Part shown: positions 3,901-63,060 of the stretch, piece by piece
Layout: each line of letters starts with the position of its first letter
How positions within the stretch are numbered: the first letter of the stretch is position 1
Program-made: the position numbers and the translations under genes
The notes under the pieces: generated by a model
What the model was told of the DNA's origin: nothing
The model's input: only the letters and a program-made list of their open reading frames with translations
The model's database searches: none
IMG/VR virus record: IMGVR_UViG_3300026286_000004
Length of the DNA stretch: 64,000 nt
Source: a virus
Taxonomy: Duplodnaviria; Heunggongvirae; Uroviricota; Caudoviricetes
Strand: one strand, 5' to 3'

Positions 3901-4491
3901 CACAAGGCCGACATCGGCCAGCGGACCGCGCTCGTGCTCGTCAAGGCGATGGTGTACGGCTCGATGATGGCGCTGGCCGGCCGGGAGGGCATCGTCATCC
4001 TGGACGAGGGCTGGATCTTCCTCGAGGCCGGCAAGTCCGAGGTCGTCCGTGCCGGGCGTCTGGCCCGGTCCTGGCAGGTGTGGCTGCTGCTGCTGACGCA
4101 GCGCGTCAAGGAGGTCGTGGACGCCGAGATCCAGCACTTCATCTCCCGCGGCGGGATCCTGCCGATGGAGGTGCAGTCGGAGGCGATCGCGGCGTGCCGG
4201 TTGTTCGGCCTGGAACCGACGGCGCAGCGACTGGAACGGATCACCGGGAAGGCGTCCCGCGCCGAGGGCGCATCGAACGCGCCGAACTGGAATTCGATGC
4301 GCGCGCTGCGTGACGACGACGGGAATGTGCTGCGTGGCTCGATCATGCTGTACTGCGACCAGAAGGGGCGCGCTGTCCCGGTCGAGGTGAAGATCCCACC
4401 GGCGTTCCTCGGGATCAGCTCGACGAGCCGGAAGGACATGCTCCGACGGGACAAGGCGTCCGCAGCAGTTCAGGATTCGTCCGCCGGTTAG
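970..4491 (+). CDS. VirB4/TrbE/TraC-family (conjugative T4SS-type) P-loop ATPase-like protein, interrupted by an intein
   Basis: 1173-aa ORF. Walker A GQSGSGK|T is split by an insertion at about residue 464. Walker B VILDEGW, then an LLLLTQ motif and an Arg-rich C-terminal domain. A ~460-aa N-terminal domain precedes the P-loop, as in VirB4-like ATPases. Confidence 0.6.
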   Translation: MARGGIKDVHFDVTHRWATSMGRVHDGGIVQSSDGGSTWLFRSVPMGPVVDARSPAESLQPGSPLMLAFDELAELAPPAQLNRRRLAKSGYRRIHLLRLRVPAKYVPPAESQLREHLSSTFHDTMTTASVLLIGIQLKASVRRTGWRDTADGIIASLTEGVTPVGDFMRDARLVGDAMTRCGLQVPTAQQMQLANSWWADYGQPDPPYLMHADHLHSFSSMEALRAAAKIGPDRCTDWDNMPGTHALSFATVAATNLSYVQADSPSSHWMSALLMSGAQAISVRGLIEPPKVTREELRRMRKGYQDDIRERLNEGKMERTEQLELEQSLQDAEAFYAQGGTPTLTDTSVLVAFSGRHPIHGYDPVPVGQRAGVTLYPMVNRQQEAWSEMMPCSKTMSNPYLLDLPAQTISFSGLPSLSVVGDKSGAQPGFTETDNQPVFIDHMASVDEDTLPIAVIVGQSGSGKAMTIDTRLRTPSGWTTFGLVDVGDKVIGSNGLPCTVLNVTTPQVRDDLLEVTLNDGQSMRVDGQHQFVARFRGWPARGLPERLDAASGQLVELAESTIDKEVVTAPALARELAGTGAGEFFPSTNAVAAALAMMDVRPGTLGRYRRAVALAALAARLKQRASHPDVADGWMVVSTAEMISTGSAQHWSLPLPAPVAGSGESLVTDALAGWRPSKALPERVIFAPVEQRRELLLDLIRGHGSMPGDCEFAVAEMAGLSPEGVESVLTLARSLGVFSVEVPWGGGVRLAMTADGFPAVSCVGIETIDATGADIVCCIEVDSPDSTFLVDDHVVTHNTQTALFLADQYARMRTSRGQRIPIVFVDPKLESNHSRTVARSGGTVFSLDRLITSDGVFDPIRFAKTAESGASMAASIILEVNPFGSKIEDYETELIHSLNFGASNGARCTMEALAMAETAGHASRAMVDRIEKLVAASTYFRAMCGSDPEGTPLQASEGITYIMLGSAQLNLPDPDAKHKADIGQRTALVLVKAMVYGSMMALAGREGIVILDEGWIFLEAGKSEVVRAGRLARSWQVWLLLLTQRVKEVVDAEIQHFISRGGILPMEVQSEAIAACRLFGLEPTAQRLERITGKASRAEGASNAPNWNSMRALRDDDGNVLRGSIMLYCDQKGRAVPVEVKIPPAFLGISSTSRKDMLRRDKASAAVQDSSAG
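2362..3363 (+). other. intein (334 aa) inserted between K and T of Walker A; class-3-like (Ala1, Cys in block F, Thr before the terminal HN); possible degenerate LAGLIDADG segment
   Basis: Block A is AMTIDTRLRTPSGW..VGDKV, block B is DGQHQF, block F is IVCCIEVD..STFLV and block G is DDHVVTHN followed by the +1 Thr. Excision restores GQSGSGKTQTALFL. The internal RRELLLDLIRGHGSM segment looks LAGLIDADG-like. Confidence 0.6.
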
Positions 4492-4526
4492 CGTGTTCAC
4501 CTCGTGCTCCCGCACTCATGTATGTC

Positions 4527-5657
4527 ATGAGTCTTGATCGCGTCATTCCCGCACGCCTTCCCGCAGCCCAGATCGACAACGAAGCCACCGCCATTGCCAG
4601 GGCGCACCAGAGCGGTGAGGTGGACTACGCCACGGCGATGACGTGGCTGAGCCGGCTCATCGTCCTGTCGACGATCCCGCACGAGGAGATGGTCACCCGC
4701 TTGCGCAGCGGGGCGTTGCGCAGGGAGGATGCCGTCACGGCTGAAGACCAGCTCCGGGACATGTTGTGCGACAAGCTCGATCCGACTCCGGGCGATACTC
4801 GGGTGAGGGCGGAGGTCGACTTCAAACTGCTGGCCGGCGGGTCGAGCTTTTCGGCGTGGATGCGCAGCTTCAGCGGCGCGCTGCTGGACCGCACGATCAT
4901 CCGTGGCGTGGGACGGTATCGCACCAAGAACATGCTGTCGCTGACAGGTTCGCTGGCGGATGCCGCCGGGTCGGACTATGTCACGGACGAGGACGCGGAG
5001 CGCGCCGACGACGAGTTGCATGTTCTCCACCGTCAACTGCGGGGCGCGAGCGAGGGGGCCAGCGTTATCGCGCGGTCGACGTCGTTGCTGCGGTACCGCC
5101 AGCTGCCGGAGCCGCGCCGCCCGGTTACGGAAGACGGCCGCCGGCAGGTGCGCGAGGCGATCAAGGCGGGCACGCTGGCGCAGTATCTGCGGTCCGGCCA
5201 CACCGGTCCGGTGCAGGATCTCTTTGCGGACTTCACGGCGGAGCAGGTTGGTGATCTGGACGCGTTGTCACTAGAACTGCTCGCAGAGTTGGCTATCACG
5301 CCGCTGCCGGCGATCTCTCGCACGGTCCAGCGGGAACTGGTCGCCTGGGCTGCTGCTCAGGTCCCGCGTGAGCACGCCGCGGCGGCTCGGGCCGTCACGG
5401 ATGCGTGGCTGACGCAGCGCACCGAGATCACGGGCGGCCGGGAAGGCCCGGTCGAGGTGAAGTCCGATCAGCAGCGGCTGCAGGAGCGCTCCGACTTCTG
5501 GACGGCGGCATCGGTGTTGCTGGATTCCTTCTGCTACGAGCTGGGGGAGACCATCGACGAGATCTCGACGGCCTTGCGGGAGCGGTACTTCACCATCGAG
5601 CGAGAGCGCTTCTTGAGCGCCCCGGAGGCGGCTCCGAGGAGTCAGACGACGGCCTGA
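4527..5657 (+). CDS. hypothetical protein
   Basis: Clean ORF with protein-like composition. A class-1 start motif (GCGTGTT-N18-TCATG-N6-ATG) precedes ATG 4527, and its first element overlaps the TAG stop of the upstream gene. Confidence 0.5.
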   Translation: MSLDRVIPARLPAAQIDNEATAIARAHQSGEVDYATAMTWLSRLIVLSTIPHEEMVTRLRSGALRREDAVTAEDQLRDMLCDKLDPTPGDTRVRAEVDFKLLAGGSSFSAWMRSFSGALLDRTIIRGVGRYRTKNMLSLTGSLADAAGSDYVTDEDAERADDELHVLHRQLRGASEGASVIARSTSLLRYRQLPEPRRPVTEDGRRQVREAIKAGTLAQYLRSGHTGPVQDLFADFTAEQVGDLDALSLELLAELAITPLPAISRTVQRELVAWAAAQVPREHAAAARAVTDAWLTQRTEITGGREGPVEVKSDQQRLQERSDFWTAASVLLDSFCYELGETIDEISTALRERYFTIERERFLSAPEAAPRSQTTA

Positions 5658-5778
5658 TCCACCCGGCCGCCGGGAACGCGCCTGTCTGCGGCAAAGAGGC
5701 GGTGGAGATGTCTCGATGAGCCCCGCGCATATCTACATCACCACTGTTCCCGCACTTCGATGTTAGGACCGACCTCTC

Positions 5779-9763: not shown

Positions 9764-9899
9764 GTCGGCTCCCTGCTCTCTCGATTCCATGGGGTCGGTG
9801 CGTCAACATCCGGATTGATCACGCTCACGCTCCCCTGCTGAGATGTATGCGGCAAGGCACCTTGCCCCCGATGCGTAACGACCCTCTCTTACCGGAGTC

Positions 9900-10754
9900 A
9901 TGGATGGCATGACTGATCTCGTTGCACCTGGCGACCCGCGGCACGGCACGTACACGGGCTACAAGCAGCTTCGCTGTCGCTGCGAAGACTGCCGGGCAGC
10001 TCAGGCCCGGCGGTACCGGGAGAGGGTGCGCAAGGGCCTTCCGAAGAACGACCCGAAGCACGGGACGCTGACGGGGTACAACAACTACGGGTGCCGGTGC
10101 GAGCCCTGCTGCGAGGCGTATGCCGCGTACCGCCGCAAGAAGTTGTCCAACGGTCTTCCCGAGGGTGACTCGCGGCATGGGACGCTAACGGGGTACAACC
10201 ACTATGGGTGCCGGTGCGAGCCCTGCTGCGAGGCGGATGCCGCGCACCGCCGCAAGAAGATGTCCGGCGGCCTTCCCGAGGGTGACTCGCGGCATGGGAC
10301 GCTGACGGGGTACAACAAATACGGGTGCCGGTGCGATAAGTGCGGCGAAGCCCGTTCCGTGTACCGCCGCAAGAAGATGTCCGGCGGCCTTCCCGAGGGT
10401 GACTCGCGGCATGGGACGCTGACGGGGTACAGACACTATGGGTGCCGGTGCGAGCCCTGCTGCGAGGCGGATGCCGCGCACCGCCGCAAGAAGTTGTCCG
10501 GCGGCCTTCCCGAGGGCGATCCGCGGCACGGGACGCTGACGGGGTACAACCATCACGTATGCCGGTGCAAGCCCTGCTGCGAGGCGCTTGCCGCGTACCG
10601 CCGCAAGAAGGCGTCCGGCGGCCTTCCGAAGAACGACCCGAAGCACGGGACGACGACGGGGTACGACAACTACGGGTGCCGGTGCGAGTCCTGTCGTCGA
10701 GGGTATGCCGCGTACCGGCGAGAACGCAGGCAACGGCCTGACCCCGCCGCCTGA
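9900..10754 (+). CDS. Cys-rich tandem-repeat protein: seven 40-aa repeats, each with an [28 protein letters not shown] motif (putative Zn-binding or DNA-binding module)
   Basis: Seven near-identical 120-bp DNA repeats. Each unit is P(E/K)(G/N)D(S/P)(R/K)[20 protein letters not shown](D/Y)AA(H/Y)RRKK(L/M)SGGL. Class-1 promoter motif upstream at 9873-9911. Confidence 0.7.
9945..10735 (+). repeat. seven ~120-bp near-identical tandem direct repeats (coding)
   Basis: Seen directly. Shadow ORFs on the opposite strand (9898..11013, 10185..10733) are artefacts of this repeat. Confidence 0.85.
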
Positions 10755-13032: not shown

Positions 13033-15324
13033 GTGACGATCCCTGATGCCGACGCTCTGCACGCGACTCTCGATGATGTCCTGACCCGGACCGTCATCGA
13101 GATCACCGGCGACCCGGACGCGAAGCCGCGGCCTGGGCAGTCCGCTCTCGCGCACGACATCCTGACCGCGATGATCAACGCGACGTCACGCGATGCGCAG
13201 GCCGGCTCCGACCATGTGCTCGGGTGCGCCCCGACCGGCGTCGGCAAGGCGATCGCGTGCGCCGCCCCGGCCGCCGTCATGGCTGCGAAGCGCGGTCACC
13301 GGACGGTTGTGTCGACCGAGTCGCTGGCGTTGCAGGCCCAACTGCTGACCAAGGATCTGCCGGACATCGCGAACGCGATCTTGAACGCGACCGGGCACGA
13401 GCTGACGTTCTCGGTCCGCAAGGGATGGTCGAACTACGGCTGCGTCGTCCAGGCCGTCACGAAGCTGCGCTCCGACCTCGAGCTTGCCGGGATCAAGGAC
13501 ACCATCCCGGACCCGGCGGACACCGACCCGGAAGAGGTCGTCGACGCGGCGATGACCATCATCCAGGACCACCCGGAACTGGACACTGCCCTGGTGAACT
13601 GGGTTCTCCTGGAAGCCATCTCCGGTGGTGAGGGAGACCGGGCGACGTGCGATGAGGACGTGACCGAGTGGGACAAGGTGTCCATCGGCCCGACCGAATG
13701 CCTCGGCAACCAGGACAAGGGCTGCCCGTTCGCGAAGCAGTGCCCGGCCGTCCGGGGCCGTGAGGCGTCGCGGGAGTCCGACATCGTCGTCACCAACCAT
13801 TCGCTGCTCGCGGTGCAGGCATCCCAGTCGGCGCCCGTGCTGCTGTCGAACCCGTCCAACGGGTTGTTTCGGCACCTGATCATCGACGAGGCGCACGCCC
13901 TGCCCGGCCAGGTCCGCGGTGCCGGGGCGCGAGACCTGTCGGCTCGCCGGATCACGCGGGTCGCCCGGGAACTGGCCCGCAACTTCGGCACGATCAACGA
14001 CTTGAAGGCGCCCGCCGTGGACGCCGTCGTCGACGACGGCTACCTGGTCGCGACCGAGGTCGACCACCTGGTGACGGCGTGGGTGCGCGGCCAGGTCGGC
14101 GAGACCCCGGCCCTGCCGCCCGATCTCAGCACGACAAGCCTTTCACCGATCTACGACAAGCTGCTCACCTGGGGTGCCGCGGTGAAGCGGGCTCTGCCCG
14201 GTGGCGACGGCCTGCCGACGTCGGCCGAGCTGTCCCGGCATCGCGTCCTGGGGCAGCTCGGATCGTTGCTGCGAGACGTGTCCGACCTGTTCGACCCGGA
14301 CGTTGCCGCGGCCCGGTGGGTCGAGGTCGGTCATGTCACCGACTCCGAGCGCGCCCGTGGCTGGACCGGTCTCGTGATGCGTTTGTCCCCGATCGACGTG
14401 TCGGAGGCGATCTCCGGCAACCTGTTCTCCACGACCGACCGGAAGCCGGGGGAGAAGCGCCCGAAGGACGAGGTGGAGCCGCGGCTCCCTTTGTCGGTGT
14501 CGATGGTGTCGGCGACCTTGCCGGCGGGTTTCGCCCGCGAGTCCGGGATCCGTGCGAAGGCGCAGGAGTACGAGTCGCCGTTCGCGACCGCGTACGAGAA
14601 TTCGATGCTCTACGTCCCGCGCGTCGACGACCCGGCCGAGCTGGCACGGATCGCGACCCGCAACGAGCGTGGCCGGTGGCGGTTCGACGTCTACCGGCAC
14701 CCGCAGTGGGCGGCCGACTACGTGACCGAACTGGTCAGCGCCAACGACGGCTACGCGCTCGTGCTGGCGGCGACGGCGGCGACCGGGAAGATGTATGCCG
14801 ACGAGTTGCGCCGTCGCACCCGGCTGCACGTCCACTCCCAGTGGGACGGCGGTGACCCGGCCCGGATCGCGGCGTCCTGGAAGGACGACCCGTCATCGGT
14901 CATGGTGGGCACGAAGTCGTTCATGACGGGCTTGGACGCGGCCGGGGACACGTGCTCCCTGGTCATCATCGACCGGGTGCCGCGGGCCCCGCAGAACGTC
15001 GTCGACGACGCCCGGGCGCAACTGCTGATGGACGAACTCGACATCGACAAGTGGGCAGCGGACCGGATGGTCTACGGCGCGGACGCCTCGCTGACGTTCG
15101 AGCAGGCCCTCGGCCGGTTGATCCGCCGGGTGTCCGACCACGGGATGGCGGTCTGCCTGGATCCGCGGCTGATGAAGAACGCCCCGCTGTCGCAGCCGGA
15201 GACGACCCGGGCGGCGTACATGGCGGCGGCCCGCCACTTCACGCGCCGCACGTCCAGCAAGGCGGACGCTCTCGCGTTCCTGCGCGAGCAGGCGGCTGCC
15301 CGGGCCGTGGCCGGGGCAGCGTAA
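13033..15324 (+). CDS. dinG: DinG/XPD-family Fe-S DNA helicase-like protein
   Basis: CAPTGVGKA P-loop (K followed by A rather than T/S), a DEAH box LIIDEAHAL, and a 4-Cys cluster CLGNQDKGCPFAKQCPAV. The class-2 element GGCAAAGAG lies 5 nt before GTG 13033. The ORF is open from 12943. Confidence 0.8.
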   Translation: MTIPDADALHATLDDVLTRTVIEITGDPDAKPRPGQSALAHDILTAMINATSRDAQAGSDHVLGCAPTGVGKAIACAAPAAVMAAKRGHRTVVSTESLALQAQLLTKDLPDIANAILNATGHELTFSVRKGWSNYGCVVQAVTKLRSDLELAGIKDTIPDPADTDPEEVVDAAMTIIQDHPELDTALVNWVLLEAISGGEGDRATCDEDVTEWDKVSIGPTECLGNQDKGCPFAKQCPAVRGREASRESDIVVTNHSLLAVQASQSAPVLLSNPSNGLFRHLIIDEAHALPGQVRGAGARDLSARRITRVARELARNFGTINDLKAPAVDAVVDDGYLVATEVDHLVTAWVRGQVGETPALPPDLSTTSLSPIYDKLLTWGAAVKRALPGGDGLPTSAELSRHRVLGQLGSLLRDVSDLFDPDVAAARWVEVGHVTDSERARGWTGLVMRLSPIDVSEAISGNLFSTTDRKPGEKRPKDEVEPRLPLSVSMVSATLPAGFARESGIRAKAQEYESPFATAYENSMLYVPRVDDPAELARIATRNERGRWRFDVYRHPQWAADYVTELVSANDGYALVLAATAATGKMYADELRRRTRLHVHSQWDGGDPARIAASWKDDPSSVMVGTKSFMTGLDAAGDTCSLVIIDRVPRAPQNVVDDARAQLLMDELDIDKWAADRMVYGADASLTFEQALGRLIRRVSDHGMAVCLDPRLMKNAPLSQPETTRAAYMAAARHFTRRTSSKADALAFLREQAAARAVAGAA

Positions 15325-15350
15325 CGACGTCGGAGGACCGGACCGGCGTC

Positions 15351-15635
15351 ATGGACGGCATGAAGAAGAAGCTCCGGATCCGCGTCGTGGATTACGCCAC
15401 CACGTGCTACGCCTGCCCGACGATCTTCGACATGACGACGACCGGCCGGCCGGGGTACTTCCGGCTCCGGGACGGCTCCTTCCGGCTGGCGTACGACGAC
15501 GGCGACCGGGCCGTGATCGTCTCCGGTTCCGCGCCGGATGACTTGGACGGGGTGTGCACGTTCGAGGACGCCCTCGGCCTGGTTCGCGCCGCCGGCGTCG
15601 ACATCACGTATGAGCCTGCCCGGCAAGGAGGTTGA
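15351..15635 (+). CDS. hypothetical small protein (about 94 aa)
   Basis: Class-1 motif GCGTAAC..CCGGCGTCATGGACGGCATGAAG. Its GCGTAA contains the dinG stop codon. Alternative start at 15360. Confidence 0.5.
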   Translation: MDGMKKKLRIRVVDYATTCYACPTIFDMTTTGRPGYFRLRDGSFRLAYDDGDRAVIVSGSAPDDLDGVCTFEDALGLVRAAGVDITYEPARQGG

Positions 15636-16498: not shown

Positions 16499-16786
16499 TC
16501 ATACCCGGCGCAGCGCGTCCTGGACGTATTCGACGACCTCGGAGCGTTTCTTGGTCCAGCGGTAGTCCTTGACGACGATCGAGTCGGCGTTCTCGATCCA
16601 GACGTTCCACCCGACCCAGACATCCCGGTTCTTGCGCCACCATATGTCGTTGACGTGGATGATGTGCTTGCCGGAGCGGATCTGGATCTGGTGCGACATG
16701 CCGTTGATGCCGCTGCGCACGATCACTTTCGTCTCGATCCCGGCCTGTTGCAGGCTGGCTTGCAGTCGATTCCATCGCGCACTCAT
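16499..16786 (-). CDS. hypothetical protein (95 aa, Trp-rich), the only minus-strand gene in a long plus-strand block
   Basis: Clean protein-like ORF. A class-1-like motif on the minus strand (GCGTGTC..N18..TCAAC-N7-ATGAGT) precedes it. Local GC content appears lower. Confidence 0.55.
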   Translation of the reverse strand: MSARWNRLQASLQQAGIETKVIVRSGINGMSHQIQIRSGKHIIHVNDIWWRKNRDVWVGWNVWIENADSIVVKDYRWTKKRSEVVEYVQDALRRV

Positions 16787-16890
16787 GCCCGTGTTGATGC
16801 CGGTCAGGCCGGCTGGACACGATGTTGTCAGCATTTGCCAAGCACTGCCCTTTCTGTTAACAGATTCTGCTACCCGCACACATTCCGGGC

Positions 16891-18602: not shown

Positions 18603-18826
18603 AGTTCGCCTACCTCGCCGCGGCGGCATTGACGGTCCTGATGGCCGCCAACGTGCTGCTGTGGAAGCGGGCCGGCTCCCCGGTCGATCACGACCGCAAG
18701 CACGACCCGGTGCCGGTGACCGTCGCCGGCGCGATCGCCGCGTTCACCACGGGGATCACGTTGCTCATGCTGCTCTGGTGGGTGGTCGAGCAGGCGCTGT
18801 CGGCGTGGCGATCCCGCGGCGCGTAA
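18599..18826 (+). CDS. small membrane protein
   Basis: Two hydrophobic helices. The stop sits inside the GCGTAA of the next promoter motif. Confidence 0.45.
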   Translation: MKFAYLAAAALTVLMAANVLLWKRAGSPVDHDRKHDPVPVTVAGAIAAFTTGITLLMLLWWVVEQALSAWRSRGA

Positions 18827-18856
18827 CCACCCCTGGTCACCGGAGTCATCACGATC

Positions 18857-18961
18857 ATGGACATGGAAACGGCAGTCGAGATGGTCAAGCTGATCTTCCC
18901 CGGTTCGACCGTCATCGACGTCACCGTCGAGCCGATCCTCGCAGAGGCCGGCGATGAGTGA
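18857..18961 (+). CDS. tiny ORF (34 aa) behind a class-1 motif
   Basis: GCGTAAC-N18-TCATC-N7-ATG. Overlaps the start of the 18954 gene. Confidence 0.3.
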   Translation: MDMETAVEMVKLIFPGSTVIDVTVEPILAEAGDE

Positions 18962-19655: not shown

Positions 19656-20026
19656 TGGCGATGCGTCTGGCTCGGGCGGCTGCGATCGGGGCTGTCGCGC
19701 TCACTCTTGTCGGCGTGGCGAAGATCGGCGACGACGAGGTGCTCTACATCCACGTCCCTGCCGAGGTGACGCATTTCGTGGTGACGAACCCGCATTCCTC
19801 GCCGTGGGTGGTCGAGGTGGACACGGACGAAGGCCGCTTCTCCCGGTGTGACCTGTCCCGGTATGACGGGCCGGAGGACATCTTCGGCGACCAGTTCGAG
19901 CTGCCCGGTCGTGCGACGGTCCCGTGCGTGACGTGGGAGTCCGGGCAGGAGGAACCGAACCCGGTCCCGGTGTTCGTCGCGGGTGGGCGTGCCGACGCCG
20001 AGGCACCGGCATCATCGCAGGCATGA
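19655..20026 (+). CDS. secreted or membrane-anchored hypothetical protein
   Basis: Product begins MAMRLARAAAIGAVALTLVGVAKIG.. The start overlaps the upstream stop. Confidence 0.5.
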   Translation: MAMRLARAAAIGAVALTLVGVAKIGDDEVLYIHVPAEVTHFVVTNPHSSPWVVEVDTDEGRFSRCDLSRYDGPEDIFGDQFELPGRATVPCVTWESGQEEPNPVPVFVAGGRADAEAPASSQA

Positions 20027-22362: not shown

Positions 22363-22495
22363 ACTTGCATTGACCATCACCGCTGACCGGCTCACCCCGG
22401 ACCGGATCGACGACATCGGCTTGGACGGCCTGATGCGTGCCCGGACCGAGGCCGGCAGCGACGACGTGCTGATCACCTACGGCGGCCCCGCGTAA
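22355..22495 (+). CDS. small hypothetical protein (46 aa)
   Basis: Overlapping start. The stop is the TAA inside the GCGTAAT of the next promoter motif. Confidence 0.35.
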   Translation: MAELALTITADRLTPDRIDDIGLDGLMRARTEAGSDDVLITYGGPA

Positions 22496-22525
22496 TCACG
22501 CGCGGGCACCGGCGTCATCTCGGAC

Positions 22526-22663
22526 ATGAACGCCACCAAGCGCACCGAAAACCCCGTGCTCCGATTCCAGCGCCAGGGTGCCTCCGGCGTGTACAAACAC
22601 CAGGCGCCGATGACCGAGTCGGTTGCCCGGCCGGACCTGGCTCACTATCTGCAACTGATCTGA
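22526..22663 (+). CDS. small hypothetical protein (45 aa)
   Basis: Class-1 motif at 22489-22528. Confidence 0.35.
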   Translation: MNATKRTENPVLRFQRQGASGVYKHQAPMTESVARPDLAHYLQLI

Positions 22664-26138: not shown

Positions 26139-27082
26139 CCGGGAAGGTGCGTCCCGCGGACGTGCCACGGATCGCGCGGGAGATCATGACGCAGATCGCA
26201 GCGAATCAGCGCCGCATCCGTGAACAGGGCACTCCCGCAAGCGTTCTCGCCGACCCGTACGTGGCCGCGTTCCTCGAGACCGGGACGGTCCTGGCCGGCG
26301 CCGACCTGATCCTGGTCTCGCCGGACATGACGACCCTCGCGGTCGACGCGGCACGGGACATCCCGGACTTCTCGATCACCGGCCTGGCGCCGGCCCGCAA
26401 CGGGATGATCGTGTTCGGCCGCGCGCTGCCGCCGATCACCCCGACTGCCGCCGACGGCCCGAACGCGACGGACAGCTTCCGAACCGCGACCGGCTTCGTC
26501 CTCACCTGGGCGTGGATCCGCGACGACGCGGTCCACATCCTGCTCTGGGGCCACAGCGACGACATCGACTGGGTGCACTCGGACAGCGCGGACGACGACC
26601 AGTGGCGATGGGACACGATGTTCGCGGCGACGTTCGAGGCGAACCGCGTGTACAACCTGGCCGACGTGGAGCGGACCGCCCCAACCGGCGCGTCCGTGCT
26701 CGCTGTGATCGCGTCGACGTGGGCGCACATGTCCTCGCCCGGTGTCGCGCGGGAGCGGGTGGTGGTCTCGGCGAAGAAGGCGAAGGGACGCCGCGGCAGC
26801 GACCGGGTCCGGCCGGTGAAGGTTGTCGAGCTATGCCCGCCGAAGTCCGCGCCGGCGGCAGCCGAATCCGGGCGGGTCTACACGCACCGCTGGTGGGTCG
26901 ACCCGTACTGGCGGTCGCAGCCGTACGGCCCGGGAAGCACACTGCGCCGCCCGGTCCGGGTGCCCGGCCACATCAAGGGGCCGGAGAGCGCCCCGATGTT
27001 GCCGTCCCGGCAGCGGGTCTATCAGTGGCGGAACGCCCCGGAGCGTGCCGACGGCCAGCCACCGGCATCATCCGCGTCATGA
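26135..27082 (+). CDS. hypothetical protein, paralog A (C-terminal HRWWVDPYWRSQ..RPVRVPGHIKGPE)
   Basis: GTGA-coupled start. Homologous to the 27441 product. Confidence 0.55.
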   Translation: MTGKVRPADVPRIAREIMTQIAANQRRIREQGTPASVLADPYVAAFLETGTVLAGADLILVSPDMTTLAVDAARDIPDFSITGLAPARNGMIVFGRALPPITPTAADGPNATDSFRTATGFVLTWAWIRDDAVHILLWGHSDDIDWVHSDSADDDQWRWDTMFAATFEANRVYNLADVERTAPTGASVLAVIASTWAHMSSPGVARERVVVSAKKAKGRRGSDRVRPVKVVELCPPKSAPAAAESGRVYTHRWWVDPYWRSQPYGPGSTLRRPVRVPGHIKGPESAPMLPSRQRVYQWRNAPERADGQPPASSAS

Positions 27083-28565: not shown

Positions 28566-28642
28566 GCCGGGGAGGGAATTTCGCTCCGGGAAACACCCCG
28601 TCCCCGGCGTAACCACGACCGCCTACCGGCCTCATCAAGGGC

Positions 28643-36983: not shown

Positions 36984-37208
36984 ATGCGCATCTTCCTGAT
37001 CCTCGCGATCATCCTCGGTTTCGTCGCCGGCTACATCGCCTCGGTCGCCGTCGGAACACGCTCTCGCACACCGCAAGACCAGCGTGTCGTGCAGCCGTGG
37101 GAGCGGGCCCTGCTGTTGGCCGGCACCGCGGCGATCATCCTGACCGGCGCAGCCGTGCTCGTGCTCGTCATCGTGATCCTCTTCCGATCCGTCCTCGATA
37201 TCGCGTAA
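36984..37208 (+). CDS. small membrane protein (2 TM helices)
   Basis: The stop TAA lies inside the GCGTAA of the next motif. Confidence 0.4.
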   Translation: MRIFLILAIILGFVAGYIASVAVGTRSRTPQDQRVVQPWERALLLAGTAAIILTGAAVLVLVIVILFRSVLDIA

Positions 37209-37241
37209 CGACGTCCGATCACCGGGCTCATCTTGGTCATG
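37203..37241 (+). promoter_or_regulatory. class-1 motif: GCGTAACGACGTCCGATCACCGGGCTCATCTTGGTCATG
   Basis: Same architecture. Its first element contains the TAA stop of the 36984 gene. Confidence 0.6.
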
Positions 37242-37620: not shown

Positions 37621-37651
37621 ATCCGCGTGCTTACCTTGACGGACCGGCTTC

Positions 37652-39100: not shown

Positions 39101-39140
39101 GCGTGCCGACGCCGCCCGACCGGCCTCATGGGTGACCATG
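39101..39140 (+). promoter_or_regulatory. class-1 motif, GCGTGCCGACGCC subfamily
   Basis: GCGTGCCGACGCCGCCCGACCGGCCTCATGGGTGACCATG. The same subfamily occurs at 19987, 27043, 31056, 54426(-) and 55068(-). Confidence 0.55.
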
Positions 39141-39401: not shown

Positions 39402-39907
39402 TGGACAGTCAGGTGGCCGACCGCATCGAGGCCGAACACCCGGAGTACCGGTTCCGGCGCCGCGATGATGGCACGGTGCACGACTGGGGCACCCAGCCGC
39501 TGCACGCCGTCGGCGAGTTCGCCAGGCGGATACCGTTCGCGTTCCGGGTCTTTCACGGCCGAGCGCACCTGTGGCTGGGCCGGTCGGTCGACCCGGTCGC
39601 CTCGGCGCACCTGGAAAGCCTGACCGCCGCCGCGATGGACGACATCGCCGGAATCTTCGCCACCCTCGCTGCGAAGGTCGCCGTCGACGTCGTGCACGGT
39701 TTCACCACGGGAGACACGGTCGTGGTCGTTTCCGCGGTGCCCGGTTCTTCCTGGCACATCACGACGATCGGGACAATCATCGGCTGCGACGATGTGTGGC
39801 TGTTCGTCGACACCGGCGATGCGCTGCCGTTCGGGACTGCGGTCCGGCGGGCACGGATCGTCTCGGTGCGTGCCCACGACCTGGTACCGGCATCAACATC
39901 GGCATGA
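39401..39907 (+). CDS. hypothetical protein
   Basis: TGATGG-coupled start. Confidence 0.45.
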   Translation: MDSQVADRIEAEHPEYRFRRRDDGTVHDWGTQPLHAVGEFARRIPFAFRVFHGRAHLWLGRSVDPVASAHLESLTAAAMDDIAGIFATLAAKVAVDVVHGFTTGDTVVVVSAVPGSSWHITTIGTIIGCDDVWLFVDTGDALPFGTAVRRARIVSVRAHDLVPASTSA

Positions 39908-42357: not shown

Positions 42358-42437
42358 ACAGTGCAGGTAGCGCGTCTGGGACGTCAGCCAATCCGGCCGC
42401 CGCGTACCGATCCTCTCGTCCCGGCCTCATCATCGGC

Positions 42438-42983
42438 ATGGACAACACCTTGCTGATGTGGACCGACGTCGAAACGAGCGGCCTGGACGCCGAGCGTGAC
42501 CACTTGCTCGAAATCGCCGCCGTCATCACCGACCCGACCGGCCGATACGAGATGGGCTGCTTCGAGCGCACGATCGCCTACAGCCCGGACGAAGCGTCCG
42601 CGATCCGCGCGAACAGCGGCCCCGTCGTGCAGAACATGCACGACCAGACCGGCTTGTGGGGCCGGCTGCCGGGAGGCACGCCGCTGGCCGAGGTCGACGC
42701 GCAGCTGCTCGACTTCATGGGCCAGTTTTCCGGCCGCCCCCGCCAGCTTCGGGTCGCCGGCAACTCCGTCCGGCTCGACCTCAACTTCCTCGAGCGGCGC
42801 CTGCCCGGTACGTACGGGATGCTGCACTACCGTTCCGTCGACGTCACCGCGCTGGCGTACGTGATGTTCGCCAACGGTTTCGTCACCGAGGGGTTCCCGA
42901 AGGAGAAGCAACACTCGGCGATGTCCGACATCCGCGAGTCGATCGCCGAATACCGGTGGATCATGGAGCGATTGCGGGGCTGA
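42438..42983 (+). CDS. orn: oligoribonuclease (DEDDh 3'-5' exoribonuclease)
   Basis: LLMWTDVETSGLD, HLLEIAAVITD and a DxxxH C-terminal motif. Class-1 motif at 42402-42440. Confidence 0.75.
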   Translation: MDNTLLMWTDVETSGLDAERDHLLEIAAVITDPTGRYEMGCFERTIAYSPDEASAIRANSGPVVQNMHDQTGLWGRLPGGTPLAEVDAQLLDFMGQFSGRPRQLRVAGNSVRLDLNFLERRLPGTYGMLHYRSVDVTALAYVMFANGFVTEGFPKEKQHSAMSDIRESIAEYRWIMERLRG

Positions 42984-45489: not shown

Positions 45490-45596
45490 GTCCGCAGGCT
45501 GCCAATGACCGACCGGAGCGGGTAGGTGTCCCGTCCGCGAAGGAGTACCGCAACGTCGGCCGTGGTGATGACCTGCATTTCGTAGGGGTTATCCAT
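45471..45596 (-). CDS. tiny ORF (41 aa) behind a minus-strand class-1 motif
   Basis: ACGTAAT-N18-TCATC-N7-ATGGAT. Overlaps the 3' end of the 44260 gene. Confidence 0.3.
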   Translation of the reverse strand: MDNPYEMQVITTADVAVLLRGRDTYPLRSVIGSLRTQDDDS

Positions 45597-45679
45597 GCCC
45601 ATGATGACGCCGGTCCGTTCCAGTGATTACGTTGCCCAGCAACGGTTTTCGGCATTTTGTGTGACGGATTTCCGCCACG

Positions 45680-50899: not shown

Positions 50900-51250
50900 G
50901 TTACGGCGGCGAACTCCCGGGCGGCGGGAGGGCACCTTCGCTCGCGCGACCACGGGAGGGAGCCCGTGCCGCCCGGCGTTGACAGCCGGTCAGACCGGCG
51001 CAGGTGCCCCGTCGTCCGGTGGGTAGGATCAGCCGTCTTACCCGCCGCCCGGGGTCCTACCCGGCATGAGTGCGGGGGCAGACAATCCAGCCCTCCGGGG
51101 AGAGGCAGCCTTCGGTTCGGGACCGAGGCCACACCACCACAGAGAGCCTTCGACGTCGCCGATGCCGTTAACAGCCGGACAGGCCGGTGCAGGCTGCCCT
51201 TCGGGGCGAAAGGGGAAATCTCCTACTCCCCGGAGGGCCGGTCTTGTCTT
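50900..51250 (-). ncRNA. candidate structured non-coding RNA or long 5' leader, transcribed from a class-1 promoter with no ORF
   Basis: On the minus strand, GCGTAAC-N18-TCATT (51259-51288) is followed by about 350 nt of GC-rich self-complementary sequence with no start codon. A long-range helix gccctccgggga...tccccggagggc is visible. Confidence 0.25.
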
Positions 51251-51302
51251 GCACCCGTAATGACGCCGGTGGCCGGAGGTCGTTACGCGCTTTGGGAAAA
51301 GA

Positions 51303-51939: not shown

Positions 51940-53103
51940 TCACGCGACCGCAAGGATGACCTTTCCAAGTTCGTCGCGCATCCGCTGCGGGATGGCCGCG
52001 TCCTGCGGCTTCATCGCGAGCAGCGAACGGACGGCGGGGACGACAACATCCTTGCGGCCAGCGGCGATAGCGGAGTCGCACACGTCGATGGCGGCGTTCC
52101 AGCGGTTCAGCGTTGGGTTGTGGCCCATCAGGGCGACGATGGCCTGGGTGAGGGCGAACAGGACGTCCGGTGTGTCGGTCGTCCACTTCACGAGCGACGG
52201 GTCCGCGAGGACCGCTTCGGGGTCGTACAGGCCGCGGGCCTTGAACCACTGGAAGAACATCTTGCCCTCGCCTTCTCCGACGCACCCGTTGATCACGAGC
52301 ATCAGGGTGGGGGCGTCGCCACGGCGGACGTAGCGCAGCATCTTCTGCAGGTTGTCCCATGACCGGGGCGACGGCCAGGCACCGGAGGACTTGTCCGCGT
52401 CGGCCGGGCAGCCGGGGTCGATTTTGGACGGGTTGTGTTGGAGATAGCCGACAACGGCTGACGCATTGGCGAGCTGCTCCGCCTCGGTCGGGTTGCCGGT
52501 CAACTGCTCCAATGACGGGACGATCTCGTTGGCGAACCCGGACAGGACACCGTTCAGCCACGCCTCGCGGTCGAACTGCCACTTGCAGTGCCAGAAGCGG
52601 TTCGCTGTCGCGGGAGCCAGTTCCTGGCCGTTCACGGCGGACTCGGGCGGGTTCATCGCCGCGACCATCGAGACCGTCTTGGGGAGCTGGAAGTCGCCCG
52701 CGCACCGTTCCTGGATCACGCGGAGCATCCCGGCCTGCGTGGACGGCGGGACGGTGGTCAACTCGTCGAAGAAGATGGTCGCCTTCGGGGCGGCCGCGGC
52801 CCGGATCGCGAACGCCGGGACGGTGTTGACCGTGGTCGGCTGCGCGACCACGTCGCCGTTCGGCATTGTCGTGACATCGGAGATCACGGGCAGGCCGGAA
52901 AAGTCGACCGCCTCCCGGATCGAGCCGATCATCGTTTCCAGGTGACGGCCCCACGCGGCCGACCACTTGGTCAGCTGGGCGGTCTTGCCGATGCCCGGGT
53001 CGCCGATGAAGGCGGCGGGCACGTCCGCGAGGACGGCTGCGGCATACGCGCGCAGCATTGGTGTTCCGGGCAGGTTTTTCAGGTTCTCACTCATGCCCCA
53101 CAT
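51940..53103 (-). CDS. MoxR-like AAA+ ATPase
   Basis: Walker A GDPGIGKT and Walker B IFFDELT. Minus-strand class-1 motif GCGTAACGACGTGCGATCACCGGCGTCATGTGGGGCATG. The alternative start is 53094. Confidence 0.7.
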   Translation of the reverse strand: MWGMSENLKNLPGTPMLRAYAAAVLADVPAAFIGDPGIGKTAQLTKWSAAWGRHLETMIGSIREAVDFSGLPVISDVTTMPNGDVVAQPTTVNTVPAFAIRAAAAPKATIFFDELTTVPPSTQAGMLRVIQERCAGDFQLPKTVSMVAAMNPPESAVNGQELAPATANRFWHCKWQFDREAWLNGVLSGFANEIVPSLEQLTGNPTEAEQLANASAVVGYLQHNPSKIDPGCPADADKSSGAWPSPRSWDNLQKMLRYVRRGDAPTLMLVINGCVGEGEGKMFFQWFKARGLYDPEAVLADPSLVKWTTDTPDVLFALTQAIVALMGHNPTLNRWNAAIDVCDSAIAAGRKDVVVPAVRSLLAMKPQDAAIPQRMRDELGKVILAVA

Positions 53104-53130
53104 GACGCCGGTGATCGCACGTCGTTACGC
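53092..53130 (-). promoter_or_regulatory. class-1 motif on the minus strand: GCGTAACGACGTGCGATCACCGGCGTCATGTGGGGCATG
   Basis: 26 of 30 positions identical to the 37203 copy. Contains the helicase TAA stop. Confidence 0.6.
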
Positions 53131-54390
53131 AATCGGCTGGGAAAGAATCCGCTGCCGCACGGCGACAGCGGCCCGTTCCGCGCCGATCTTCACGAGCTGG
53201 GCCACGGACGTACTGTCGTGAACCCACACCAGTCGGGCCTTGTGCCGGGAGAGCATCACGCAAGTACGGCCCAGCGAGATTTGGTGCGACCCGAGGTCGG
53301 GTGCGCCAGTGATCGGGTCGAGCGCGACCACGACCGCCCACTGCCCGCCCTGCAACTTGTCCGCCGTGCCGATCGAGATCCGGGAGCGGCCCCTGGCGCG
53401 CAGCATCGCGGTGATCTTCGTGACCTGGGTGGACCGTGAAACGACGATGGCGATATCGGATTCGACGACCGTCCGCTGCTGGCCGTCCTCGACCAGGGTG
53501 TCCCCGAGGTGGGAGACGGCGAGATCGACAACGGCGCGCATCATCGCGGAGTCGTCCACCCCGTCCGGTTCCGGGACGGTGAAGTGGGCAACTTCGGGCA
53601 GCCGCGCACCGCCACGGGCGACGTACTTGTCCGGGCGCGCCGAACCGAACGGGAAGTCGTACAGCGGAGCGATCACCTTCGCTGAAATCTCGCCGAGCCG
53701 CCACGTAGCGTCCATCGTGTGCACCTTGGGTGTCACCCCGTACAGGTGCTCGAACGCTTCCGGGGAGCGGCGGTGCGGAGCGATCCGCATCGCCTCCCAT
53801 GCGGACGTGTCGGCGGTGATCACCGGACCGATCTGGCCGGGATCGCCAACCAGGACGAGCTGCGGGGTGTTCGCGGCAGCGGTCGCGACCTCATCGAACG
53901 GCAGCTGGTACGCCTCGTCGATGAGCAGCACGTCGAACTGCGGTGCCGACCTATGTGCCGTCAGTGACGCGCACGTCATTACTGACACCTTCGTGCCCGG
54001 CACGCCTGGCATGGGCTTGGTCAGGTGCTTCAAACCATCCGGGACGTTGCTTCTGCCTTCGAGGCGGACCATGCCGTCGGGCAGGTCCAGCGCGAGCCGT
54101 TCGGCGACCGCGTTGCGCTGTTCCGTCGTGAATGTTGCGACGCCGACGCGCAGGTCTCCGAACCCGGCGAGCCACGCCGTGAGGATGCCGAGCAGGTGCG
54201 TCTTGCCGCCACCGGGCGGCGACTTCACGATCGTTACAGCCGCGCCGCCGTACACGTCGGCGACAACCGCCGCGGCAACCGAACCGGGCACCAGGGTCGG
54301 CGGAGCCCAACCGGCTTCCGGCTCATCCTGAACCGCTTCCGGCTTGACGTTCTGCTCGCCAATCAGCCCGGCCAGGTCATCGAGATTCAT
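53125..54390 (-). CDS. SF1 (RecD/AAA_30-like) helicase
   Basis: Walker A SPPGGGKT, Walker B LLIDEAYQL and LVGDPGQIGPV. Minus-strand class-1 motif at 54388-54426. Confidence 0.65.
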   Translation of the reverse strand: MNLDDLAGLIGEQNVKPEAVQDEPEAGWAPPTLVPGSVAAAVVADVYGGAAVTIVKSPPGGGKTHLLGILTAWLAGFGDLRVGVATFTTEQRNAVAERLALDLPDGMVRLEGRSNVPDGLKHLTKPMPGVPGTKVSVMTCASLTAHRSAPQFDVLLIDEAYQLPFDEVATAAANTPQLVLVGDPGQIGPVITADTSAWEAMRIAPHRRSPEAFEHLYGVTPKVHTMDATWRLGEISAKVIAPLYDFPFGSARPDKYVARGGARLPEVAHFTVPEPDGVDDSAMMRAVVDLAVSHLGDTLVEDGQQRTVVESDIAIVVSRSTQVTKITAMLRARGRSRISIGTADKLQGGQWAVVVALDPITGAPDLGSHQISLGRTCVMLSRHKARLVWVHDSTSVAQLVKIGAERAAVAVRQRILSQPIA

Positions 54391-54444
54391 GCCCTACATG
54401 AGTGCGGTCAGGCGGCGTCGGCACGCATTTCGCGGGACCGATTT

Positions 54445-55041
54445 CTATCGGCCGGCGACCTTCTCGGCCCGGTCCAGGTCGGCGGACTCCTGTGCCGTCC
54501 CGCCACCGTTGACGAGCAGGTAGATTTCCGCTTCGGCGGCAACCGTCGACACCCGGCTCGTGACGACCGGCACCAACGCCCGGTTGCCGAGCAGCCGCCG
54601 GCCACGCTCGCTCAGGCCGGACCGGGTCGCGTACGGGCCGTCGCCGGTGTCGATGGTCTTCTCGACCCACTCGGGTTCCAGCCAGGACGCCGGGATCGCA
54701 ATCTCATTGTCCTCGAACGCCATCCACGCGGTCAGCCGCTGCTTGCCGTCGATGACGGCGTACATGTCGATGCCGTCGTTGAGCGGGTTTGGGCCGTCGG
54801 ACCACTCGTGCGTGCGGTCGTTGATGACGATCGCCGGGATCGGGACGCCGCGCAGGACCGACTCGATCAGCCGGACCTGCTGCATCGTCGTCCAGACCTG
54901 GCCGCGCTGGTACGGCGCGTCCAGAGTCATGCCGTCCCCCCGCACCAGCCGGGACAGCTCCGACAGCATCCGGGAGGAGGCCGGCAAGGACTGGTGCCGG
55001 ATCGGCTCGGTCGTCTGCAGCGTGATCGTCATGTCGTCCAT
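54445..55041 (-). CDS. DUF262/ParB-sulfiredoxin-like domain protein (DGQQR-like IDGKQRL)
   Basis: YAVIDGKQRLTAW. Minus-strand class-1 motif GCGTGCCGACGCC..CCGGCCTCATGGACGACATGACG. Confidence 0.55.
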   Translation of the reverse strand: MDDMTITLQTTEPIRHQSLPASSRMLSELSRLVRGDGMTLDAPYQRGQVWTTMQQVRLIESVLRGVPIPAIVINDRTHEWSDGPNPLNDGIDMYAVIDGKQRLTAWMAFEDNEIAIPASWLEPEWVEKTIDTGDGPYATRSGLSERGRRLLGNRALVPVVTSRVSTVAAEAEIYLLVNGGGTAQESADLDRAEKVAGR

Positions 55042-55072
55042 GAGGCCGGTCCGCCGGCGTCGGCACGCGGCG

Positions 55073-57195: not shown

Positions 57196-57605
57196 GGCAG
57201 ACGGCCAGCGTCGCGCAGTGCTGCCACGGCAAGCTCCGCGATCTCTTCGTGCCGTTCGCACGGTCCGACGGCGTTGCAGGTCCGGCAGCAATCAGTGCGG
57301 CGGTGCGAGGGCCACTCGTTCAGGATGTCGCGGACGAAGTTGTCCACGCGCGATCCGGTCAGGCACGTCTTCGCCTCGTCGACAAAGGCGGCCATGTCGT
57401 GGATGCGGACCGCGCCGTCGTCGACGAGAGCGCACAAATCCAGGACTCCGACCGTCACGCCGACGCCGTCGAGGTGCGGGTAGATCGCCTTCCACCCGTC
57501 CGACGGCAGACCGGCCGAACCCGGCTGCGCCCACGATGACGGCAGCACCAGGTCGCCCTCGGCCAGCGTGCTGTCCAGGGTCAGCTGTTCGAAGATCGTT
57601 TTCAT
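57192..57605 (-). CDS. hypothetical protein with a C-terminal Cys cluster (CCRTCNAVGPCERH); tandem paralog
   Basis: Minus-strand class-1 motif GCGTGTC-N18-TCATGGTGGTCATGAAA. Confidence 0.45.
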   Translation of the reverse strand: MKTIFEQLTLDSTLAEGDLVLPSSWAQPGSAGLPSDGWKAIYPHLDGVGVTVGVLDLCALVDDGAVRIHDMAAFVDEAKTCLTGSRVDNFVRDILNEWPSHRRTDCCRTCNAVGPCERHEEIAELAVAALRDAGRLP

Positions 57606-57775
57606 GACCACCATGAAGCCGGTCGTGAAGGATCGACACGCGCGGCCGGCCGTGCCGGGTCGCGAAGCGCCTGCCGGAACGACGCAGGCTTCCGGGCGCG
57701 CAGCCGCTGGGCGTCGGCCCGAGCCTGCAGCGCCCTCGCGGTCTTCTCCTTCCAGTCGGGTACCAAGTCAGTCAT
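57602..57775 (-). CDS. small coiled-coil ORF (57 aa)
   Basis: ATGA-coupled to the downstream gene. Protein-like composition. Confidence 0.3.
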   Translation of the reverse strand: MTDLVPDWKEKTARALQARADAQRLRARKPASFRQALRDPARPAARVDPSRPASWWS

Positions 57776-62489: not shown

Positions 62490-62583
62490 CGCTTCTTCTC
62501 TCCCGAAAGCACTTGTGCTGCAAGGTTTCGCAGCCACCGGGCGGTGTCACTCAGGCCGTCGCGGAAAGCCTGCGCGGCAGCCC

Positions 62584-62955
62584 TCAGATGACCTTCGCGA
62601 CCGCGGCGTCCACGATGTCGGAGATCATCTTCGACAGGTCGTCGACGGTGACCGTGAACAGGTCTGTCGTCTCCGCGACCCGCTCGGCGGTCTTGACCAT
62701 CGCCAAGTGCCGGACGCCGTGCTCGTCGATGTAGTCGTGGCCCTCGTCGCGGTGGTCGGTCCAGGTGGACTTGACCGTCACGAGGCGGCCCTTCTCGGTC
62801 AGCCAGTGCTTCTTGCTGACACGCCATCCGAGGCGCGGATCGGTGCCGGACGCGACGCGCTGCGTCGGGACGCCGAGGTTGTGCAGCAGCTCTCGCATGG
62901 TGTTGATGAGGCCGACCTTGGCGGTCGCAAGGATCTGGTCGGAAACGCTGTTCAT
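62584..62955 (-). CDS. hypothetical protein (123 aa)
   Basis: AGGAGC RBS. An upstream class-1 motif (GCGTAAG-N18-TCATA) sits about 40 nt before the start, with a short hairpin in the leader. Confidence 0.5.
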   Translation of the reverse strand: MNSVSDQILATAKVGLINTMRELLHNLGVPTQRVASGTDPRLGWRVSKKHWLTEKGRLVTVKSTWTDHRDEGHDYIDEHGVRHLAMVKTAERVAETTDLFTVTVDDLSKMISDIVDAAVAKVI

Positions 62956-63060
62956 GGGTTCTGCTCCTAATGGTTCGGGGTGCTTCTACCCCTTATGACG
63001 CCGGTCGCCGATGATGCTTACGCTACCGGGGAGGTCTGACAGTCCTCGGGCCAGAAAACG

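Follow-up and report, generated by a model that had tools for sequence, protein, structure and literature searches.

A repeated gene-start motif as a candidate promoter for leaderless mRNAs on a putative conjugative element of Micrococcales

The 64-kb window of the record IMGVR_UViG_3300026286_000004 (the whole stretch of DNA analysed here, whose positions are used as coordinates below) carries a bipartite motif of about 40 bp that recurs directly before start codons, and the locus raises the question of whether this motif is read by an RNA polymerase, by a DNA-binding regulator or by the ribosome. An initial annotation of the window had described it as a start-associated element with the geometry of an extracytoplasmic function (ECF) sigma promoter, implying a promoter for every gene and leaderless transcripts. 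We refer to this motif as class A. The reading that we favour, with a probability of about 0.7, is that class A is an element-specific promoter for leaderless mRNAs, on which transcription would start at the A of the ATG codon; as a predicted promoter of this kind it is well supported in silico.

The motif was searched for with a position weight matrix (PWM) derived from copies aligned on the TCAT word and limited to positions -38 to -5, numbered with the A of the ATG as +1, the start codon being left out as an independent test. At a score of at least 19 bits the PWM finds 26 class A sites in the window, whereas first-order Markov simulations of the same window contain on average 0.8 sites above 12 bits and reach a maximum score of 22 bits. 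Exact matches to GCGTRMCGAC number 15 against 2.75 expected, a count attained in none of 100 shuffles of the window. The repeated start-associated motif is thus real and enriched over a shuffled background; all 24 coordinates given in the initial annotation were recovered by the PWM within 0-4 nt, and two copies absent from its list were added, 32539-32577(+) (TCAT at 32564) and 39868-39906(+) (TCAA at 39893).

An ATG lies exactly 11 nt past the T of TCAT in 23 of the 26 copies (binomial chance ~1e-44) and at 12 nt in one copy (39126), while two copies, 51263(-) and 62998(-), have no ATG. The open reading frames (ORFs) opened by the class A ATGs have a GC content at third codon positions of 0.76-0.94 throughout. 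Every copy is directed at the adjacent gene (26/26), as had been claimed, and the 18-nt spacing from GCGTRMC to TCAT, also written AAC-N16-CGTC, is kept in 25 of the 26; in the exception, 15319-15362, the spacer has gained 5 nt through duplication of ACCGG. With the element flanks and variant contigs included, 37 distinct class A sites are known, 30 of them with an ATG at exactly +11 on the same count. The copies within the window are as follows, plus strand first.

4491..4529, plus strand: GTGTT variant; ATG 4527, opening a 376-amino-acid (aa) gene after the VirB4-like ATPase; the upstream stop is the TAG of TAG-CGT
9873..9911, plus strand: GTAACG; ATG 9909, for a 281-aa protein with 7 zinc-knuckle repeats
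15319..15362, plus strand: spacer longer by 5 nt (ACCGG duplicated); ATG 15360
18821..18859, plus strand: GTAACC; ATG 18857; the upstream gene's stop is the TAA of GCGTAAC
19987..20025, plus strand: GTGCCG; within the 3' end of the upstream gene, with an ATGA stop/start overlap; ATG 20023
22490..22528, plus strand: GTAATC; ATG 22526
27043..27081, plus strand: GTGCCG; within the 3' end of the upstream gene; ATG 27079
28607..28645, plus strand: GTAACC; ATG 28643, NAD-dependent DNA ligase
31056..31094, plus strand: GTGCCG, CCGCAC-TCAT form; ATG 31092
32539..32577, plus strand: GTAATG, CCGCAC-TCAT form; ATG 32575, RNA-ligase-like gene
33609..33647, plus strand: GTACCA; ATG 33645
35107..35145, plus strand: GTAACG, joint top PWM score; ATG 35143, RlaP nucleotidyltransferase
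37203..37241, plus strand: GTAACG; ATG 37239; the TAA of the motif is the upstream gene's stop
37625..37663, plus strand: GTGCTT; ATG 37661
39101..39140, plus strand: GTGCCG; ATG 39138, 12 nt (not 11) after TCAT
39868..39906, plus strand: GTGCCC, TCAA for TCAT; within the 3' end of the upstream gene; ATG 39904, phosphoesterase
42402..42440, plus strand: GTACCG; ATG 42438, RNase_T exonuclease
16784..16822, minus strand: weak copy (CGTGTC, TCAA); ATG 16786; divergent from a class B site at 16875(+)
31833..31871, minus strand: weakest copy (GCGCGCC in the first block); ATG 31835; divergent from a class C site at 31899(+)
45594..45632, minus strand: ACGTAATC; ATG 45596, 41-aa ORF
51250..51288, minus strand: ATG-less; predicted +1 at G 51252; heads an ORF-free region up to ATG 50873
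53092..53130, minus strand: GTAACG, joint top PWM score; ATG 53094, AAA_5 (MoxR-like) ATPase; the TAA of the motif is the upstream stop
54388..54426, minus strand: GTGCCG, CCGCAC-TCAT form; ATG 54390, AAA_30 helicase
55030..55068, minus strand: GTGCCG; ATG 55032, GmrSD_N / DUF262-like gene
57603..57641, minus strand: GTGTCG; ATG 57605
62985..63023, minus strand: no ATG at +1; predicted +1 at A 62987, then a leader of ~30 nt with AGGAG; ATG 62955

The consensus consists of GCGT-R-M-C-N-AC at -36 to -27, ACCGG at -18 to -14, TCAT at -11 to -8 and GGC at -3 to -1 (G-3, G-2 and C-1, followed by ATGA). G-36, C-35, G-34 and T-33 are almost invariant, position -32 is A or G (A in 13/25 copies), position -31 is A or C (A in 11/25), and C-30, A-28 and C-27 are conserved, so that the invariant bases, CGT at -35 to -33 together with the latter three, form the pattern CGT..C.AC over a 10-bp block. 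The stretches from -26 to -19 and from -7 to -4 are unconserved. The two sub-families distinguished earlier, GTAAC and GTGCC, are borne out by covariation with a G at -12, which is present in 12/21 against 2/16 members (p=0.007 over the 37 distinct sites). Comparison with a 98.2%-identical variant contig, and within two other variant pairs, shows 6 substitutions and 1 indel inside the motif span, all at non-conserved positions; the chance that all 6 substitutions would be so placed, computed by hand as (18/42)^6, is ~0.006. The 98.2%-identical variant L032, a contig of SRR29782984, has, where it aligns to 31056-31094, a class A copy before a 92-aa gene with a spacer longer by 1 nt, a naturally occurring case for judging how stringent the spacer is.

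The genes behind class A show the features of leaderless promoters, namely that a -10-like word precedes the start codon at a constant distance, that a Shine-Dalgarno (SD) sequence is lacking and that an AUG stands at the predicted 5' end. Their start codon is ATG in 24/24 cases, compared with 33/53 among the remaining genes (p=0.0002), and anti-SD pairing is weaker in class A genes (median -2.9 vs -5.0 kcal/mol, p=0.03). A pyrimidine at -1 combined with a purine at +1 is found in 25/26 copies, both ATG-less copies among them. Divergent gaps contain one start-adjacent motif for each direction, as at 16797-/16875+ and 31846-/31899+ in the window and at 3922-/4005+ of contig L005.

From this geometry we infer the transcription start, the leaderless state of the mRNA and the kind of factor. 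The block at -36 to -27 would serve as the -35 element and TCAT, preceded by ACCGG, as the -10 region, with the start site at C(-1)/A(+1) and an mRNA that would have neither a 5' leader nor an SD sequence. The sigma-A word TANNNT occurs between -17 and -3 in 0/26 copies, and class A would therefore be read by an alternative holoenzyme and not by that of the housekeeping sigma-A. Class A promoters would be situated in or just after the end of the preceding gene, mostly with no terminator, so that each such gene would have its own leaderless transcript in addition to any read-through.

The earlier proposal of a leaderless-promoter architecture is upheld as regards the exact promoter geometry relative to the ATG, but a promoter for each gene was an overstatement. 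In a model of ~77 genes, only 24 carry class A, 22 are coupled (overlapping the preceding gene or separated from it by a gap of <=8 nt), 11 have motifs of two further classes, B and C, and 20 have other upstream regions, some of them SD-like. Genes beginning with MDGM or MDDM had been noted as well. These starts do derive from an in-frame ATG within TCATG (copies at 4518, 9900, 32566, 37652 and similar), 9 nt upstream of the conserved ATG, and it is this upstream ATG that ORF finders and public gene calls choose, so that the gene at 4527-5657, for example, is called with 379 aa and not 376 aa; the position conserved relative to the motif is, however, that of the downstream ATG, which is accordingly favoured as the true start.

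Since the motif stands at start codons in short intergenic gaps and sometimes holds the stop codon of the previous gene, it might act in translation, as a signal for re-initiation or coupling or as a start-associated sequence (SAS) of the Cluster K type, or else as a stoperator-like block to elongation. The stop of the upstream gene is indeed the TAA of GCGTAAC in 4 copies and lies in TAG-CGT in 2, and 3 copies have an ATGA stop/start overlap; the motif thus contains the stop in six copies, and the claim that it often does so holds for a minority, as does the quantised gene spacing, which is real. The distance from the gene of a class A copy to the upstream gene varies from -4 to >800 nt and some copies lie in divergent regions, which implies that in many cases there is no upstream ribosome. 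The motif also has no SD content, and its conserved part extends 36 nt upstream and includes a variable gap.

Two copies have no start codon at all. The first, 51250..51288(-), heads an ORF-free region as had been stated, and the second, near 63021(-), is followed, again as described before, by a 40-nt SD-containing leader (~30 nt when counted from the predicted +1). The positions of these ATG-less copies before a structured ORF-free region and before an SD leader set class A apart from translation signals. The ORF-free region itself, 50874-51252(-), spans 379 nt downstream of the class A copy and upstream of a 57-aa ORF; its predicted fold has an energy of -198 kcal/mol, better than all 100 shuffles (z=-3.4). 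No Rfam match was found for it, and the Rfam and tRNA scans gave no matches. A hairpin followed by a T-run, resembling an intrinsic terminator, lies at ~51300-51345, directly upstream of the motif copy.

The SAS of Cluster K mycobacteriophages and the stoperators of Cluster A mycobacteriophages are single blocks of 13-14 bp, the SAS includes the ribosome-binding site and stoperators have no fixed distance to starts. Class A resembles both in its many oriented copies, its placement in short gaps at gene starts and its occurrence on an actinobacterial mobile element, but they have no -35/-10 geometry and do not stand at a constant distance from the ATG such that transcription would begin there. 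With its bipartite span of ~40 bp, its lack of SD and its fixed ATG distance, class A does not conform to the features generally known of either, and a translation signal or stoperator is the least probable of the readings weighed here.

For the favoured promoter reading, the closest structural parallel is found among ECF sigma factors. In the crystal structure of the Mycobacterium tuberculosis sigma-H open complex, the duplex starts at -34 with the -35 element GGAACA, which we place at -34 to -29 from that scaffold start, the optimal spacer is 17 bp, and the -10 element is GTT with T-10 and T-9 flipped out; ECF sigmas are said to require consensus elements and a rigid spacer (PMC6411747). Class A has GTRMCG at -34 to -29, 17 bp, and TCA at -11 to -9, which matches the sigma-H layout if and only if transcription starts at the A of the ATG. 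This layout and the rigid spacer would fit an ECF-type sigma, possibly with two related specificities for the GTAAC and GTGCC sub-families. Like class A, ECF (group 4) promoters have a hexamer at about -34 to -29, a rigid 17-bp spacer and a short -10 word at -11 to -9, with both blocks stringently conserved. They differ in that the class A -10 word is TCAT and not GTT (sigma-H) or CGAT (sigma-D), that half of the copies have GTGCC instead of GTAAC, and that class A has the additional ACCGG at -18 to -14, a 10-bp -35 block and no cognate sigma/anti-sigma pair found nearby.

Among named ECF-like promoters, that of actinobacterial sigma-D, GTAAC(A/G)-N16-CGAT (PMC6338062; PMC13537577), deserves separate mention. 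The -35 word of the GTAAC sub-family (~11 copies) is identical to GTAAC(A/G), but the downstream word is TCAT at N17 or CGTC at N15 and never CGAT at N16. As the -10 word differs and the spacing to it is off by one nucleotide, class A is not a sigma-D (ECF40) promoter.

Several observations weigh against a promoter read by an ECF-type factor with its start on the ATG. The AAC core typical of ECF -35 elements is absent in about half of the class A copies, including the whole GTGCC sub-family, and the invariant CGT..C.AC spans 10 bp, longer than the usual sigma-4 site. GCGT-N4-ACGC and TCAT-N7-ATGA are partial inverted repeats of the sort expected of dimeric regulators. The spacing is not absolutely fixed, as seen from the additional 1 nt in a variant of the 31092 copy and the additional 5 nt in the 15319 copy. 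One copy in the upstream flank, L010:6748(+), has no ATG at +11 and lies in a coding region; it scores 35.6 bits, is situated inside a PDDEXK_1 gene ~2.3 kb upstream of the window start and may be an internal or remnant promoter. Neither the window nor ~40 kb of additional element sequence yielded a gene for a sigma factor, an anti-sigma or an RNA polymerase. Finally, we infer the start on the A of the ATG from the sequence only.

A sigma-factor gene on the element, which the initial annotation had suggested looking for, was thus not detected in the window and ~40 kb more. Sigma70_r2 and Sigma70_r4 have no match among the called window proteins (Pfam, run on concatenated protein chunks), and no sigma factor was recognised among 51 unannotated proteins by PHROGs and NCBIfam or among 32 proteins of flanking or related contigs by Pfam. 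The ECF-like promoter of the initial annotation stands in its layout, which is exact relative to the sigma-H scaffold, and falls short in the AAC core and in that no sigma gene was found in the sequence searched; given a core missing from about half of the copies, the half-palindromic 10-bp -35 block and the extra conserved ACCGG, membership in the ECF type is not established.

The symmetry of the blocks suggests instead that class A could be a set of operators for an element-encoded global repressor or activator, with promoter function being secondary or supplied by the host holoenzyme. Comparable operators are those of KorA and KorB on IncP plasmids and the repeated operator sets of plasmid R388. 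GCGT-N4-AC(GC) is half-palindromic and becomes a complete palindrome in most GTGCC copies, the inverted repeat TCAT-N7-ATGA is present in 20/25 copies, the conserved blocks exceed the usual sigma contacts in length, and the element encodes many uncharacterised small proteins as well as a protein of seven zinc-knuckle repeats matching phage 'HTH DNA binding' (helix-turn-helix) families. The complete motif is nevertheless asymmetric and always co-oriented with its gene, and its constant distance of 11 nt from the ATG, like the Y(-1)/R(+1) pair, is a property of promoters. Because no copy contains a separate sigma-A -10 word, the class A blocks themselves must supply the promoter function. An A at +4 is common in genes without the motif too (35/53), so the ATGA arm need not be selected as part of a palindrome. 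On balance we consider the operator reading unlikely, although a dimeric regulator might use the blocks as operators either alone or in addition to their promoter function; within the promoter reading, the half-palindromic -35 block could alternatively be an activator site.

The high uniformity of the consensus and its restriction to one element, with occurrences in only a few metagenome samples and none in IMG/VR, would also be compatible with promoters served by a polymerase that uses no sigma factor, a T7-like or YonO-like single-subunit enzyme encoded elsewhere on the element. Promoters of the T7 type, however, are contiguous blocks from about -17 to +6, whereas class A is bipartite, with an unconserved 8-nt gap at -26 to -19 and -35/-10 spacing, and no polymerase-like protein was found in the ~105 kb examined; we regard such a polymerase as very improbable. 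An 886-aa protein (22679-25339), whose only relatives are hypothetical proteins of jumbo phages, was considered as a hidden polymerase and dismissed, as no polymerase metal-binding motif was seen by eye.

Two further motif classes accompany class A. Class B has the form CCGCACACAT-N7-(A/G)TG, also written CCG(C/G/T)ACACAT-N7-(A/G)TG, and class C the form CGCCGCC-N~15-GGCAAAGAG-N5-(A/G)TG. Their -10-like words, ACACAT at -13 to -8 in class B and CAAAGA at -12 to -7 in class C, keep the same distance to the start codon as TCAT. Their sites in the window are listed below.

16875, plus strand: class B, start-adjacent
44244, plus strand: class B, start-adjacent
60558, plus strand: class B, start-adjacent
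42346, minus strand: class B, no start codon
10767, plus strand: class C
13019, plus strand: class C
20732, plus strand: class C
25585, plus strand: class C
31899, plus strand: class C
38198, plus strand: class C
43007, plus strand: class C
60534, minus strand: class C
5690, plus strand: class C, no start codon at that offset
42222, minus strand: class C, no start codon at that offset

Class C precedes thyA, a helicase gene, recG, an exonuclease gene and other genes, and implies corrected starts at GTG 25599 and GTG 38212. Words similar to it, GCAAAGGA or GCAAACGA, stand before two genes in the relative L028. The CCGCAC-TCAT form of class A is one base apart from class B. Three relatives of the element share class B, namely the Pseudarthrobacter plasmid pACHL01 (7 copies in 42 kb), a Pseudactinotalea contig (4 in 22 kb) and a metagenomic relative (5 in 22 kb) (L003, L027 and L028), always N7 before ATG or GTG. 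Class A was not detected in the related regions examined; in those of PLSDB megaplasmids (pACHL01 and Curtobacterium plasmid D40) no site reached 10 bits, and pACHL01 carries other start-adjacent motifs. This distribution suggests that class B is the type common to the whole family and that class A, with its strong -35 block, is an elaboration specific to one lineage.

The nature of the element bears on these comparisons. The initial annotation had likened the arrangement to that of actinophages, a context that the data do not sustain. A phage origin was rejected, given the absence of a nucleotide relative in 50,697 phage records, the absence of the motif from IMG/VR and the conjugative gene content, although many small window proteins do have PHROG relatives. 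No nucleotide relatives of the window were found among PLSDB plasmids. The 1173-aa AAA_10 (VirB4-like) ATPase has 40-45% identity to proteins of 370-610-kb plasmids of Curtobacterium, Arthrobacter, Pseudarthrobacter and Paenarthrobacter. Other window genes encode a class II ribonucleotide reductase with an intein, ThyA, a DHFR-phosphoesterase fusion, helicases, an NAD ligase, three RNase_T exonucleases, a 1538-aa FtsK-like protein, RecG, a PARP-like protein, thymidylate kinase, and MoxR-like and vWA-like proteins. The window sequence is part of a 161-kb contig (DAINLJ010000004.1) in the metagenome-assembled genome GCA_036736985.1 and was also assembled in several Joint Genome Institute (JGI) samples; the sludge-type samples containing the element are JGI 3300009517, 3300026282/3/9 and 3300003768, and SRR29782984. 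The analysis took in ~24 kb more of this contig. Further along it are a gene resembling a type IV secretion system coupling protein, two tyrosine integrases, excisionase-like HTH genes and DnaG, whose best named relatives belong to Intrasporangiaceae, Dermatophilaceae and other Micrococcales (50-65% identity). On the basis of this gene content and of the relatives of the VirB4-like protein and DnaG, the element is predicted to be a giant conjugative plasmid or an integrative element of an uncultured Micrococcales bacterium. Class A is also present in the element flanks and on a second contig of 44.9 kb from the same sample; the 12 kb with the coupling protein and integrases contain no copies, and GTDB representative genomes yielded only 2 single matches, judged to be chance.

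The same sequences contain several other features. Intein-like insertions are present in the genes of the VirB4-like ATPase and the class II ribonucleotide reductase, at 970-4491(+) and 5779-9033(+); the reductase has Hint/intein Pfam matches, and the ATPase aligns to plasmid homologues in two pieces, with an insert that starts after the Walker A GSGK, ends at THN|T and resembles mycobacterial plasmid DnaB regions. The 281-aa protein at 9909-10754(+), behind one of the best class A promoters, consists of seven ~38-aa repeats (GDPRHGTxTGYxxxGCRCxxCxxA). Its matches span ten PHROG families, among them 'HTH DNA binding protein', integrase and HNH endonuclease, and it may bind DNA in a sequence-specific manner. 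Paralogous pairs on the plus strand are 26135-27082 / 27441-28448 (phrog_15934, with a C-terminal RHRWWV...GH.KGP motif), 18954-19655 / 20023-20709 (zinc-ribbon proteins) and 37661-38170 / 40470-40907. A 67-kb variant contig (L008/L025, from JGI 3300026283) diverges after thyA-DHFR into enoyl-CoA hydratase, acetyltransferase and AzlC/AzlD genes and has upstream DnaE, SSB and a peptidase M23 gene in place of the arrangement of the window contig; it is a relative with rearrangements or else a chimera produced by assembly at thyA/folA, and its DnaE contains an intein. In two relatives (L027:11932-12234 and L028:12130-12408), the gene after the homologue of the 586-aa ParA/Mrp-like protein is WhiB-like, and the equivalent position here (L010:1864-2532) is occupied by a 222-aa protein with no Pfam match.

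Leaderless actinobacterial genes with a -10 box at a fixed distance, the ECF-type layout and uniform promoter sets on mobile elements are already well known. As in the actinobacterial leaderless promoters modelled by GeneMarkS-2 and MetaGeneMark-2, class A has a -10-like word ~10 nt before the start, no SD and a 5'-terminal AUG; those promoters, however, have the sigma-A word TANNNT and little or no -35 element, whereas class A has a non-sigma-A consensus with a strong -35 block, is confined to one mobile element and is accompanied by two further classes. Phages have middle and late promoter sets read by phage-encoded sigma factors, and plasmids may encode a sigma as well, for example SigN of Bacillus subtilis pBS32. 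Such sets share with class A the dozens of near-identical promoters of several classes on one mobile element, but here no element-encoded sigma was found and the element is conjugative (VirB4-like, coupling-protein-like and FtsK-like genes), not a phage. What appears to be new is the class A consensus, its density (26 copies in 64 kb), its restriction to a single conjugative element from an uncultured host and the presence beside it of two other putative leaderless promoter classes; a literature search for the motif strings and for pACHL01 found no paper reporting class A sequences.

A tentative extension, possible but somewhat doubtful in our view, is that the element encodes a specificity factor for class A that has so far escaped recognition, or two paralogous ones for the GTAAC and GTGCC forms, co-evolved with ~40 or more promoters, so that classes A, B and C would make up the element's own leaderless programme, with class B ancestral among giant Micrococcales plasmids. 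If this were true, conjugative megaplasmids would possess a phage-like, self-contained and largely leaderless expression system. Should transcript mapping confirm the promoter reading, the combination of a compact, stringent promoter with a leaderless start would be a candidate orthogonal expression part for high-GC Actinobacteria, the ~40 near-identical sites would offer a direct handle on the sigma factor or activator that runs a giant conjugative element in an uncultured wastewater-type actinobacterium, and gene starts would be corrected where automatic callers took the in-frame ATG inside TCATG. It would then also follow that on such elements a third or more of the genes can be transcribed without leaders from promoters specific to the element.

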